A model generated the notes under the pieces. It was not told the DNA's origin. It searched no databases and was given only the letters and a program-made list of their open reading frames with translations. Source: an uncultured Candidatus Saccharibacteria bacterium (lineage in GTDB: Bacteria; Patescibacteriota; Minisyncoccia; Phycocordibacterales; UBA9973). From it: a stretch of 62,605 nucleotides of DNA. The stretch lies in NCBI GenBank assembly GCA_964591445.1, contig CAZQAW010000004.1, forward strand, positions 1 to 62,605. The letters run 5' to 3'. Below are positions 28,850 through 32,269 of the stretch, in pieces (position 1 is the first letter of the stretch; every line of letters starts with the position of its first letter). A program made the position numbers and the translations under genes.

Positions 28850-30766
28850 ATGTCAAAAATCATTGGAATCGACTTGGGTACAACTAACTCTGCTGTTGCC
28901 ATCATCGAAGGTGGACAGCCGAAAATTATTGAAAACATTGAAGGTGCTCGCACAACGCCTTCTATTGTTGCGCTTGCAAAAAACGGCGACCGCATGGTTG
29001 GACTTCTCGCAAAGCGACAAGCGGTAACAAACCCACAAAATACTATTTACGGAATCAAGCGCTTCATGGGCCACATGTTCGACGACCCAGAAGTTCAGAA
29101 AGATTTGAAAAACGTTCCGTTTAAACTTCAGAAAGGAAAGAACGGCGGAGTCGAAGTAAACATGAACGGAACTTGGATGACCCCAGAAGAAGTTTCTGCG
29201 ATGATTCTTACAAAAATCAAAACTGATGTTGAGGCAAAACTCGGCGAAAAGATTACAGAAGCGATTATTACTGTTCCTGCGTACTTCAACGACGCTCAGC
29301 GAAAAGCGACAAAAGATGCGGGCGCAATTGCCGGCCTCGATGTAAAGCGCATCATCAACGAACCAACAGCCGCTGCGCTTGCATACGGATTTAACTCAAA
29401 GAAAAATGAAAAGATCGTTGTGTACGACTTTGGAGGTGGAACGCTCGACGTGTCTGTGCTTGAAGTTGGAGACGATGTGATCGAAGTGAAATCTACAGAC
29501 GGAGACAGTCATTTGGGAGGCCGCGATATCGACCACAAGATCATCAACTGGATCGCAGATGAATTTAAAAAAGAATCTGGCGTCGATGTTCGCACAGACA
29601 TGCTTGCGCTTCAGCGTTTGGACGAAGCTGCAGAAAAAGCGAAGATTGAACTTTCAACTGCGGTAGAAACTGAAATCAATATTCCGTTTATTACTTCAAC
29701 AGCGGCTGGCCCTCAGCACTTGCTCTTGAAAATGTCTCGCGCTCAACTTGAATCTTTGGCCGAAGAATATATCAATCGTTCAATCGAAATCACAAAGCGC
29801 GCGATCGAAGCTTCTGGTTTCAAGTATTCTGACATCAACGAAATCATCATGGTGGGAGGTCAGACTCGCATGCCGAAAATTGTAGAAGAAGTGAAGAAAG
29901 TGTTTGGAAAAGATCCAAACCGTTCTATCAACCCAGACGAAGTTGTGGCTCTTGGAGCTGCGGTGCAAGGTGGAGTTTTGAAAGGCGAAGTTCGAGACGT
30001 TCTTTTGCTCGACGTTATCCCGCTTTCACTCGGAATCGAAACTTTGGGTGGCGTTGCAACAAAACTTATCGAGCGTAACACAACTATTCCAAGTTCAAAG
30101 TCGCAAGTGTTCTCGACAGCTGCCGACAACCAAACTTCTGTAGAAATTCACATTACGCAAGGTGAACGACCAATGGCTTCAGACAACAAATCTCTTGGAC
30201 GATTTATCTTGGACGGCATTCCGCCAGCACCGCGAGGCATGCCGCAAGTCGAAGTTTCTTTCGATGTTGACGCAAACGGAATCTTGAACGTAACCGCAAA
30301 AGACAAAGCTTCTGGAAAAGCGCAATCTATCCGCATCGAAGCTTCTGGCGGACTCAAAGATGAAGATATCAAACGCATGCAAGCTGAAGCTGAAGCAAAC
30401 GCCGAAGAAGACGCAAAGAAAAAAGAACTTGCTGATGCAAAGAACACTGCTGAAATGACCATCTTTACTGCAGAAAAATCTTTGAAAGAGTATGGTGACA
30501 AAGTTGAAGCAACTTTGAAGACAGCTGTTGAAGAAAAAATCACAGCACTTCGAACTGCAAAAGACGGTACTGACAAAGATGCAATCCATGCCGCAACCGA
30601 AGCTCTTTCAACAGAACTTTCTAAAATCGGCGAAGCAATGTCGGCCCAAGGCCGATCCGCCTCGGGCGGAGCAGAGGACCCTTCGACAAGCTCAGAGCAA
30701 GCAGCCGAAGTTCAAAACGAAGAAATTCCAAATGCTGAAGCAACCCCTGAAGAAAAAAGTGACTGA
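28850..30766 (+). CDS. dnaK: Chaperone DnaK
   Basis: [35 protein letters not shown]. Confidence 0.98.
30641..30670 (+). repeat. In-frame 30-nt twin-hairpin element in the dnaK tail ([10 protein letters not shown])
   Basis: TCGGCC-CAA-GGCCGA followed by TCCGCC-TCG-GGCGGA; both stems perfect. Confidence 0.8.
30679..30702 (+). repeat. Second short element in the dnaK tail (PSTSSEQA)
   Basis: CCCTTCGACAAGCTCAGAGCAAGC resembles a recurrent PSTSSG/PFDKLR coding insert (recalled, unverified). Confidence 0.45.
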
Positions 30767-30884
30767 GCAAAGTAAAAAATAATTTAATAAAAGCACAAAA
30801 AGAACCCTAAATCTAGGGTTCTTTTTGTGCTTGCTATTTTGTATTATTTGTTGTAATATATGTAAAACTAAAAATTATATTAAT

Positions 30885-31295
30885 ATGGCAAATACACAAT
30901 CAGCTTATTTTAACAGAACAGTAAGTTATTTAACAAATTTAATCCACAATAAAAGAAAGGATGATGGGGGCAACCAAAGACTCAATTCAAAATTGATTAT
31001 TTTGGAAAGTGTCTTCGCCACAAAAATTAGTGAGCTTGGGTTATTGCCTAGGACATTTAATGTCTTAAATAATTATAGTTCAAGCGAATTTTCTAAAATT
31101 AATACTTTTGAAGATTTAATGCACTTTGCTCCGGACGATTTTATTAAATTTAGAGGTTTTGGAAAAAAAAGCATGACGGATCTTATGAAAGTCATCTCTG
31201 AGAAAGGTTTTGAGTACGGAGAATACCAAGGCTCCAAATCTGCCCGAAATGATTGGTTCCATAATAATAATTGTTGGAAATTTGTTGGGAACTGA
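30885..31295 (+). CDS. Stand-alone RNA polymerase alpha-CTD-like protein
   Basis: ISELGLLPRTFNVL...INTFEDL...KFRGFGKKSMTDL aligns with the rpoA tail IDTLDLSTRTLNAL...IRTVGGI...LPGMGEKGIQEI. Confidence 0.75.
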   Translation: MANTQSAYFNRTVSYLTNLIHNKRKDDGGNQRLNSKLIILESVFATKISELGLLPRTFNVLNNYSSSEFSKINTFEDLMHFAPDDFIKFRGFGKKSMTDLMKVISEKGFEYGEYQGSKSARNDWFHNNNCWKFVGN

Positions 31296-31396
31296 AAATT
31301 TTAGACTCCACTATTTACTTTAAGCACCCAGATAGCGCCTAAAGCTCTGTCTGGTTTTTTTATTGCCGGAAAAATGGTATAATAGGTCACATTTAT

Positions 31397-32269
31397 ATGG
31401 CAAAAGATTATTACAAAACTCTTGGTGTGGGGAAAAATGCCAGCCAAGACGAAATCAAGAAAGCATTTCGCAAAATGGCGCACCAGTATCACCCCGACAA
31501 AAACAAGGGTGATGATTCGAAATTCAAAGAAATAAACGAAGCTTATCAAACTCTTTCCGATGAAAAGAAGCGTGCACAGTACGACCAATTTGGCAGTGAC
31601 GGACCATCCTTCGCCGGAGGAGGCTATGGCGCAGGGAGCCAAGGCTTTGGTGGTTTCGATTTTTCTGGATTTCAAAATGGCCAAGGCTTCGACATGGGAG
31701 ATTTGGGAGACATTTTCTCAGACTTTTTTTCCGCCCAAGGCGGACCAGCCTCGGGCTGGGGTGGTAGTCGAACACGTCGTGGTCGCGATATTTCGACTGA
31801 AATCAGCCTCGCATTTTCCGAGGCTGTTTTTGGCGTAGAAAAAACAATTGCGATTACAAAACAATCGACGTGCGAAACATGCAAAGGAAGTGGCGCAAAA
31901 CCTGGAACAAAGATGAAGACGTGTGCAAAATGTAAAGGCCAAGGACAGATCCGACAAACAAAAAGATCTATCTTGGGAACGTTTGAAAATGTAACAATGT
32001 GTGACGAATGTTTCGGGTCTGGCCAAACTCCGGAAGAAAAATGTGGAACTTGCAAAGGCCATGGCGTTCATAACAAACAAGAAACAATCAAGCTTACCAT
32101 TCCGTCCGGCATCAACAATGGCGAAATGGTAAAACTTTCAGGCTACGGCGAAGCAGTCTCGCACGGCAAAACAGGAGACTTGTACGTCAAAATAAAAATA
32201 AAGAAACCAGGCAAACTGTCACAAAAAGCAAAAGAAGCACTTGAAGTTTTGCAGAAAGAGGGGATATAG
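31397..32269 (+). CDS. dnaJ: Chaperone DnaJ, internally deleted (290 aa)
   Basis: J domain with HPD, G/F region, four CxxCxGxG motifs, only one C-terminal beta domain. Confidence 0.93.
31730..31759 (+). repeat. In-frame 30-nt twin-hairpin element in the dnaJ G/F linker ([10 protein letters not shown])
   Basis: TCCGCC-CAA-GGCGGA followed by CCAGCC-TCG-GGCTGG. Confidence 0.8.

Follow-up and report, generated by a model that had tools for sequence, protein, structure and literature searches.

Twin-hairpin segments in dnaK and dnaJ of a Patescibacteria genome are copies of a dispersed GC-rich repeat that recurs beside a small tRNA-linked GIY-YIG gene

Rickettsia palindromic elements are selfish palindromes that sit in frame in many unrelated, often essential genes and are translated with them; they are about 100-150 bp long, occur only in Rickettsia-type genomes and have no known mobiliser. 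Here we describe a 30-nt element of two adjacent hairpins, observed once in dnaK and once in dnaJ within a 62,605-nt stretch of DNA (hereafter the window; contig CAZQAW010000004.1, positions 1 to 62,605, assembly GCA_964591445.1) from an uncultured Candidatus Saccharibacteria bacterium. The two segments are solo copies of a GC-rich element, a 6-bp stem with a C-R-A loop followed by a 6-bp stem with a T-Y-G loop, that is dispersed in Patescibacteria (the candidate phyla radiation, CPR). Like the Rickettsia elements it is found in frame in diverse housekeeping genes (40 of 49 copies within open reading frames (ORFs) are in phase 0), but it stands apart by description as a 30-bp, dyad-symmetric unit found across Patescibacteria and accompanied by a candidate nuclease. 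The GC clusters and double-hairpin elements of fungal mitochondria, 'byp' included, share the GC-rich two-hairpin form and have spread in AT-rich small genomes, coding regions among them. Unlike these organellar elements, which vary in length, are often out of frame and are in some cases bypassed by the ribosome, the copies studied here have a fixed length of 30 nt, are predicted to be translated, and exclude variants with a phase-0 stop. A further parallel concerns the candidate nuclease, a GIY-YIG protein. The seg genes of phage T4 are free-standing GIY-YIG homing endonuclease genes, with segB located in a tRNA cluster, and the genes observed here likewise resemble selfish insertions beside tRNAs and retain the conserved residues of the GIY-YIG catalytic motif. 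Seg and I-TevI-type enzymes, however, have a DNA-binding domain at the C-terminus and are not known to be accompanied by dispersed hairpin satellites, whereas the present proteins (70-95 aa) are essentially the catalytic domain alone.

Repetitive extragenic palindromic (REP) sequences and their REP-associated tyrosine transposases (RAYTs), as described in gamma-proteobacteria (PMC3116915, PMC2817692), offer another comparison. As in REPs and REPINs, short GC-rich palindromes are dispersed as an inverted doublet, in this case a 30-nt unit of two inverted 15-nt hairpins. Its copies also flank or precede a small nuclease gene, with one domesticated-looking gene per family, and hairpin type co-varies with protein subclade as it does for RAYTs, although the associated enzyme is of the GIY-YIG kind (PF01541, UPF0213-like) rather than a Y1 HUH transposase. 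A conserved GTAG or CGTC tetranucleotide at one end is a hallmark of REPs (PMC3733652) that the present copies lack; they begin with TCC, CCA, TCG, TCA or CCC, and are flanked by T-rich sequence on one side and A-rich sequence on the other. They differ further from REPs in that most copies of clear context lie inside genes (49 of 87), in their low density (2 copies per 62.6 kb), and in a cassette that is joined to a tRNA gene whose 5' end is duplicated. The lack of direct repeats at the junctions, and thus of a target-site duplication, also separates the element from miniature inverted-repeat transposable elements. Within the same bacterial group, GIY-YIG ORFs have been reported in CPR rRNA-gene insertions that belong neither to the group I nor to the group II introns, together with many short unexplained insertions at stem-loops (PMC11270868); that work covers rRNA genes and describes neither the hairpin nor the tRNA-linked cassette, nor copies lying in frame in protein genes. 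No Rfam family matched the element, and a literature search that included its sequence as a text string found no description of it. The element works like the REP/REPIN-RAYT system and the Rickettsia elements but fails defining features of both, and is apparently an undescribed selfish DNA repeat of CPR/Patescibacteria.

Both copies were observed in the window with exactly the sequences and coordinates given in an earlier note on its letters (hereafter the original prediction), and both begin on a codon boundary and span ten codons, as that note had said. The dnaK copy (30641-30670, forward strand; TCGGCC-CAA-GGCCGA-TCCGCC-TCG-GGCGGA) belongs to variant TCG/TCC, with hairpin 1 at 30641-30655 (loop CAA) and hairpin 2 at 30656-30670 (loop TCG). 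The dnaJ copy (31730-31759, forward strand; TCCGCC-CAA-GGCGGA-CCAGCC-TCG-GGCTGG) belongs to the commonest variant, TCC/CCA, with hairpin 1 at 31730-31744 (loop CAA) and hairpin 2 at 31745-31759 (loop TCG). Each is read in phase 0 as a decapeptide. In dnaK (28850-30766, forward strand, 638 aa; PF00012, E = 1e-245) the element forms codons 598-607 (offset 1791 = 597x3) of the variable C-terminal tail, directly 3' of the conserved KIGEAM and immediately past the HSP70 domain assigned by Pfam to residues 4-598. In dnaJ (31397-32269, forward strand, 290 aa) it forms codons 112-121 (offset 333 = 111x3) at the end of the Gly/Phe-rich (G/F) linker, preceded by DIFSDFF; in the Pfam assignment it follows the J domain (residues 4-63) and precedes DnaJ_C, which begins at residue 133.

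When the window was scanned by structure only, we observed 33 perfect hairpins with 6-bp stems and 3-nt loops against 23.6 expected, and just these two adjacent 6-3-6/6-3-6 twins against 0.05 expected from shuffles; for the loop-anchored pattern described below, the number of chance matches in the window was 0.00. The two copies are identical at 24 of 30 positions, and the six differences make up three complementary pairs, an arrangement with a chance of about 1e-5 by simple arithmetic. Each copy adopts the twin-hairpin fold both as single-stranded RNA (-18.7 kcal/mol, z = -2.5 and -3.2) and as DNA of either strand (about -12 kcal/mol, z = -3.2 to -4.1), while the antisense RNA favours a single long hairpin containing G.U pairs. 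Among the genome-scan matches listed, the dnaK 30-mer is identical in every letter to six others (loci L116, L117, L123, L126, L157 and L169, in our numbering) and the dnaJ 30-mer to 19 others. The compensatory differences pointed out in the original prediction are therefore real as three compensated pairs, but since each copy has letter-identical counterparts in other phyla they represent family variants and not co-evolution in place.

The genome-wide pattern search proposed in the original prediction was carried out with GCCCAAGGC-N6-GCCTCGGGC on one genome per species, leaving the outer 3 bp of each stem free. At least 119 stretches matched this loop-anchored pattern, nearly all of them in Patescibacteria and spread over many classes, with hosts among the Magasanik-, Falkow-, Uhr-, Moran-, Portnoy-, Doudna-, Giovannoni-, Nealson-, Staskawicz-, Buchanan- and Paceibacteria. 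All six free outer pairs were complementary in 81 of the 98 low-GC matches listed, compared with 6.9 (maximum 15) when the 3' arms were shuffled among copies. The outer triplets TCC, CCA, TCG, TCA and CCC recur, each with its complement, and TGC, TTC, CTC, TCT and CCG are rare; the types of hairpin 1 and hairpin 2 combine freely. Compensated stem changes are often non-synonymous (Gly>Arg, Gly>Trp, Ser>Pro) and even introduce stop codons, so that nucleic-acid pairing rather than the peptide is conserved, as had been proposed. Decaying copies contained C.A as well as G.T mismatches. The element was not found in curated phages or plasmids, nor in any complete E. coli genome.

A number of copies were observed in unusual settings. 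Two viral contigs with a GC content of 69% (L282, 8297-8326, reverse strand; L284, 8291-8320, forward strand) carry perfect twin hairpins that make up the final ten codons of a gene; TAG, a GGAGG resembling a ribosome-binding site and an ATG come next, and the two copies differ by one compensated pair (TCC/GGA against TTC/GAA). Perfect copies in GC-rich contigs of this kind indicate that the family extends past the low-GC CPR genomes. Perfect or near-perfect copies were also observed in GC-rich metagenome-assembled genomes (MAGs) outside the CPR, labelled Terriglobia or Acidiferrales (L144, L145, L128; GC 0.62-0.67), one with an adjacent half-element; these may reflect true hosts, binning errors or horizontal spread. 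Locus L193 contains two copies 8 nt apart in the tandem order element-AAAAACAC-element-AAAAACAC, and two copies occur within one protein in L134 (read by eye as a prepilin peptidase) and in the DnaJ of L124. Single 15-nt half-elements (CCCGCC-CAA/CGA-GGCGGG) lie beside full twins in L208 (about 2400-2454), L212 (about 2430-2458) and L145, which suggests that the 15-nt hairpin is a modular unit. Intergenic copies in L084, L123, L165, L173 and L189 are placed within AT-rich short-period repeats (ATTTTCAATTTT, GGAAATT x3 and CCCTAAAT-like), and some copies in such repeats are transcribed in wastewater metatranscriptomes, as seen from the loose ends of RNA runs at window positions 31726/31758.

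The element is symmetric, and so is the site that it prefers. Among the perfect GC-rich twins observed in about 2 Mb of sequence, 99 of 116 had a C-R-A first loop together with a T-Y-G second loop on either strand, and the same trend was found in 24 copies collected without any constraint on the loops. C-R-A and T-Y-G are reverse complements of each other, which makes the family consensus identical to its own reverse complement; it is formed of two inverted 15-nt palindromic units. Flanks were compared for 87 copies: T was observed at -2 and -1 in 62 and 52 copies, A or G at +1, and A at +2 and +3 in 70 and 51 copies, giving the symmetric preferred junction T-T-(T/C)^(A/G)-A-A without target duplication. 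Comparisons of filled and empty sites showed plain insertion at TTT^GGT, ATG^GCR and GGF^DF with no direct repeats at the junctions, the boundaries were exactly 30 nt in nearly all copies, and flanking sequences of a donor were never co-inserted. The sequences indicate that the element inserts as an exact 30-bp unit with no target duplication, preferring TT(T/C)^(A/G)AA. The symmetric consensus, the symmetric flanks and the DNA folds together suggest recognition at the level of DNA, in the form of a cruciform or by a dimer, and not an oriented RNA signal.

Copies come and go between close strains. By its DnaK relatives the window belongs to the Patescibacteria (Nomurabacteria/Paceibacteria). 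We examined 80 related dnaK loci (70-84% identity) and observed the element in two, in the dnaK of L009 at the same site and in the dnaJ of L050 at another site in the G/F linker. The L009 dnaK copy has a first stem altered by two compensated pairs, and the remaining dnaK orthologues have ordinary, highly variable tails, which argues that the insert is not an inherited peptide. The nearest DnaK relatives of the window and of L009 are all free of the element, and with such lineages lying between them the two same-site copies were not simply inherited. The orthologue comparison suggested in the original prediction thus found the insert present in some loci and absent from others (78 of the 80 dnaK loci lack it, and in dnaJ it occupies at least three sites); a peptide common to all orthologues and a lack of further copies, which that note had named as grounds for abandoning its proposal, were not observed.

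A freshwater strain (X5), about 92% identical nearby, lacks both copies. Its dnaK reads ATG^GCG AAA ACG GGA GAA ACA AAC CCT (KIGEAM-AKTGETNP...) and its dnaJ site reads TTT^GGTGGTGGACAGCAAGCT, encoding DFF-GGGQQA-RTRR; the junctions at both sites fit a plain insertion, with small indels just downstream. The sister strain X3 has both copies. X3 and X5 share 15 differences from the window over 260 nt and differ from each other in one patch of about 65 nt (30641-30704) where X3 equals the window, so that the tract extends about 35 nt past the element on one side. This mosaic points to short-tract recombination of the element-bearing patch between strains. The X3 copy also carries one C>T change that turns a G-C pair into G.T, which indicates that resident copies decay. 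The absence from X5 and the patchy occurrence among relatives do not fit the description 'domesticated' used in the original prediction, and nothing observed suggests a host function. RNA-derived contigs from relatives in metagenome runs span both copies with the element retained, and in four metatranscriptome runs no 30-nt skip was observed across the copies, although contigs cannot exclude rare forms; excision at the RNA level, or an intron-like insertion, was rejected on these grounds. Spikes in depth and many loose ends occur exactly at the borders of the element in RNA and DNA runs alike, which indicates that the 30-mer is repeated elsewhere in the community, including at other expressed loci.

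The reading frame leaves a clear mark on the copies retained in genes. The 49 copies within through-running ORFs included 40 in phase 0 (33 forward, 7 reverse) and nine in other phases, and an in-frame stop was observed in only one marginal case. Variants with a phase-0 TGA in the stems sit in intergenic DNA or in other phases, and copies in other phases or bearing TGA survive mainly outside genes. On either strand the phase-0 reading is S/P-A-Q/R-G-x-S/P-A-S/L-G-x. Relative to neighbouring genes, intergenic copies were oriented 20 against 14, showing no bias, and copies in genes 31 against 10, a bias that can be attributed to a filter on the encoded peptide and not to strand-specific insertion. 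Hosts identified by Pfam include SecA, UvrA, UvrC, EF-Ts, AlaRS, AtpA, AtpD, RNase R, a UvrD-type helicase and the CCA-adding enzyme, with the copies mostly between domains; those of the CCA-adding enzymes of L085 and L120 occupy the same site and are 28/30 identical. DnaJ was the most frequent host, with copies after a Phe codon at no fewer than three places (GGF-E-DF, DFF-E-GG and GGF-E-QGG, where E is the element), and in L124 the second DnaJ copy is reversed. A tolerant G/F linker with many TTT^GAT-like targets would account for a chaperone gene pair hit twice in the window. More generally, survival in genes, mostly in linkers and tails, follows from a length of ten codons and from one phase per strand that gives a small Gly/Ala/Ser-rich decapeptide. 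Regulation specific to chaperones (a CIRCE/HrcA operator or an RNA thermometer) was rejected, as the copies are intragenic, are absent from most of the related dnaK loci, and occur in many unrelated genes. The proposal of a mobile kind of palindromic element carried in frame, in the manner of the Rickettsia elements, is in this respect borne out.

All-against-all clustering of ORFs near about 85 copies gave one unexpected recurrent family, a 70-95 aa GIY-YIG protein (PF01541, E = 1.9e-15) whose nearest solved relatives are the UPF0213 proteins BH0048 and EF2693, both of unknown function; it was also the only recurrent family flanking non-genic copies. Its alignment contains the invariant residues Y5, Y16, G18, R26, H30, N31 and E62. 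No PADLOC defence model matched the protein, and an identity as a defence system was set aside. For seven of the approximately 85 copies, a gene of this family begins 10-120 nt downstream. In the reverse direction, we collected 80 loci of GIY-YIG homologues across genomes with a search from a four-sequence alignment and scanned them for twin hairpins by structure alone. A GC-rich twin hairpin was observed upstream of the ATG in 19 of the 26 closest loci, at a distance of 12-35 nt with one at 132 nt.

These loci have a common order: a partial copy of a tRNA 5' end split by the hairpin, a further 5-12 nt of tRNA, a short leader, the GIY-YIG ORF, and an intact tRNA of the same kind as the fragment, which starts within about 35 nt of the stop codon or overlaps it. 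The fragments are mostly from tRNA-Ser, also from tRNA-Tyr and tRNA-Thr, and the hairpin falls in the acceptor, the D-loop or the anticodon loop. A tRNA, of many kinds, lies directly downstream in 33 of the 80 loci, and its 5' end is repeated upstream in 22 of these 33; in every locus with a twin hairpin, either the cassette adjoined a tRNA or the locus was truncated by the end of its contig. The hairpin is thus a fixed component of a tRNA-linked GIY-YIG cassette. In L202, L207 and L214 the fragment diverges from the adjacent tRNA and therefore appears to travel with the cassette, and L208 and L221 share a tRNA-Thr/tRNA-Tyr neighbourhood in which the cassette precedes a different tRNA in each. 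One locus (L213, 521-916) carries a tandem duplicate of hairpin plus GIY-YIG gene with a 323-nt period. For those copies that have tRNA-like flanks a tRNA intron was considered and rejected, as deleting the 30 nt in silico restored no tRNA and the flanks are duplicated tRNA 5' fragments. No copy was observed inside rRNA, RNase P or tmRNA genes among the 37 non-genic loci examined.

Other subclades of the GIY-YIG protein have other hairpin types at the same place, and hairpin type follows protein subclade. One of these is a second dispersed family, a perfect 20-nt palindrome (CCTGCCTGCCGGCAGGCAGG) that interrupts the tRNA 5' fragment in cassettes from other subclades. It was observed in L014 (7384-7403), a lineage close to that of the window, where it splits a tRNA-Leu fragment before a GIY-YIG gene, and in L115 (3041 and 4687), L270 (2465), L275 (2452), L096, L103, L178 and L220. 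We had expected this palindrome to be excluded from genes, which was wrong: solo copies occur in frame (LPAGRQ or TCLPAGR), the hosts being AlaRS and a protein identified by eye as MnmA. As a multiple of three, the unit inserted there would in effect be 21 nt.

Taken whole, the best explanation in our judgement, to which we give a probability of about 0.6, is that the window segments are solo copies of a dispersed dyad-symmetric element with the GIY-YIG nuclease as its inferred mobiliser. The two parts of this reading differ in strength. That the element is mobile, dispersed and filtered by reading frame we regard as very likely, while the claim that the GIY-YIG protein moves the hairpin, suggested by their shared position, falls a little short of an even chance. 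The protein would be a structure-specific nuclease acting on cruciforms or hairpins, probably as a dimer on its symmetric substrate, and would cut symmetric AT-rich targets, excise the hairpin unit, or both. There are precedents in the dimeric restriction enzymes of the GIY-YIG type and in the SLX1 relatives of UPF0213, which are structure-specific. Solo copies would then be non-autonomous derivatives, standing to the nuclease as REPs do to RAYTs; pairing would stay perfect because only foldable copies propagate, and the stem variants would be lineages of the element and not products of compensation in situ. In its broadest and more tentative form, the proposal is that the twin hairpin and other GC hairpins (for example CCTGCCTG-CCGG-CAGGCAGG) may be the cis part of an unrecognised class of mobile elements, in which a minimal GIY-YIG nuclease of 70-95 aa, no larger than its catalytic domain and seated at tRNA 5' ends, would read DNA structure (a double cruciform) and scatter units of 30 bp (or about 21 bp) into symmetric AT-rich sites, writing flexible decapeptides into essential CPR proteins.

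Several observations weigh against this explanation. The link between GIY-YIG gene and hairpin is positional only; among the GIY-YIG homologues that are more distant, a nearby tRNA and a nearby hairpin are both missing in about half, and the window itself, with two copies in 62.6 kb, contains no GIY-YIG gene and one tRNA. The cassette hairpin could also serve the cassette itself, in expression or in blocking deletion between the tRNA repeats. The empty and filled sites of X5 and the window differ by a net 18 and 21 nt and not by 30, with extra indels adjoining both copies, and the RNA contigs may contain DNA. Finally, the family counts are those of the listed scan matches, anchored on one combination of loops, and many of the scan records are MAGs with unreliable taxon labels.

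Other explanations were weighed against the same evidence. The hairpin might be a by-product of GIY-YIG cleavage, in which symmetric AT-rich breaks are repaired by capture or copying of a hairpin, leaving a scar or templated insertion, and the resulting alleles spread by short-patch recombination after DNA uptake. Such an origin would suit the X3 patch, mosaic with respect to the flanking single-nucleotide differences and running about 35 nt to one side, as well as the indels beside both window copies, the single half-elements in L208 and L212, and the position of the cassette hairpin, which always leaves 5-12 nt of the duplicated tRNA segment beyond it, like the mark of a cut site. We nevertheless consider it unlikely, since exact 30-nt bounds and identical 30-mers across phyla demand precise copying or excision, which amounts to mobility, and donor flanks never accompany the copies. 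It is also rather improbable that the hairpin is a functional cis element selected in place, whether to stabilise the mRNA, to pause translation, to bind a host protein or to regulate the GIY-YIG gene from the 5' untranslated region (5'-UTR), and spread by ordinary recombination without a dedicated nuclease. The very strong conservation of pairing, the transcription of the copies, the near identity of the same-site copies in diverged CCA-adding enzyme orthologues and the constant 12-35 nt before the GIY-YIG start, where a 5'-UTR structure or an operator would lie, are all in its favour. But the copies are present or absent between close strains and among relatives, are found in both orientations, within genes of every kind and between genes, and have no Rfam counterpart; their antisense RNA folds differently although the DNA is symmetric, and the occurrence of C.A beside G.T in decaying copies shows no clear RNA-type constraint.

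The original prediction had suggested a REP-associated HUH nuclease as the mobiliser, and a REP-like element moved on single-stranded hairpins by an HUH/Y1 transposase (RAYT) or another enzyme of the IS200/IS605 type has some appeal. A small, GC-rich palindrome that folds as single-stranded DNA would suit such an enzyme, and IS200/IS605 elements likewise insert next to a short preferred sequence without target duplication. The search for a RAYT/TnpA-REP gene flanked by the element, also suggested in that note, found none that recurs, a single instance being possible: the clusters near about 85 copies include no recurrent transposase-like family, the small GIY-YIG gene being the only recurrent neighbour, and Y1/HUH is absent from the 25 Pfam families listed for flanking ORFs, single-member families lying beyond that list. 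The GTAG/CGTC tag is missing, target and element are symmetric on both strands, and the intergenic copies show no strand bias, unlike single-strand transposition targeted to the lagging strand; strand-specific insertion of that kind was rejected for this reason. We therefore hold this reading to be very unlikely, while noting that an unseen enzyme could move the hairpin. The remaining alternative makes the palindrome a side effect of a low-complexity peptide rich in Gly, Ser and Ala (SAxGG x2), the codons TCC/GGA and GCC/GGC being mutual reverse complements. It is true that TCC-GCC-xxx-GGC-GGA encodes S-A-x-G-G and that inserts occur in Gly-rich linkers; however, many copies are intergenic, reversed or in other phases, stem changes preserve the pairing although they bring in radical replacements (for example G>W, G>R and S>P) and even stop codons, and unrelated proteins share identical 30-mers. 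This reading, to which we give almost no credence, is refuted by the copies that are intergenic or out of phase.

Other features of the dnaK-dnaJ region were also observed. A long perfect palindrome followed by a T-run lies right after dnaK (30785-30840) and is consistent with an intrinsic terminator; its Rfam matches were only weak and spurious. The 656 nt between dnaK and dnaJ in the window (30741-31396) are replaced by 42 nt in related strains, in DNA and RNA runs. Within this segment lie the terminator hairpin of dnaK and an ORF (30885-31295) that encodes an RNA polymerase alpha C-terminal domain (PF03118, E = 8e-8), and the difference in length indicates that the stand-alone gene, resembling the alpha C-terminal domain, is itself an insertion/deletion polymorphism. 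The DnaJ of the window (290 aa), like that of L050, is shorter than those of relatives (approximately 357-370 aa); its second C-terminal domain is apparently missing and its C-terminal tail is retained.

If the link between hairpin and GIY-YIG gene holds, the element would be the first REP- or MITE-like repeat family tied to a GIY-YIG nuclease and not to one of the usual kinds of transposase, and the widespread small GIY-YIG proteins of the UPF0213 type, whose function is unknown, would gain a role. The element accounts for puzzling 10-residue inserts in core CPR proteins, among them DnaK, DnaJ, SecA, ATP synthase, UvrA and aminoacyl-tRNA synthetases, and such inserts affect the alignments, phylogenies and structure models of these organisms. 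The element also breaks assemblies at its borders and is therefore relevant to binning and strain analysis. It represents selfish DNA that proliferates within the essential genes of some of the smallest and most streamlined genomes known.

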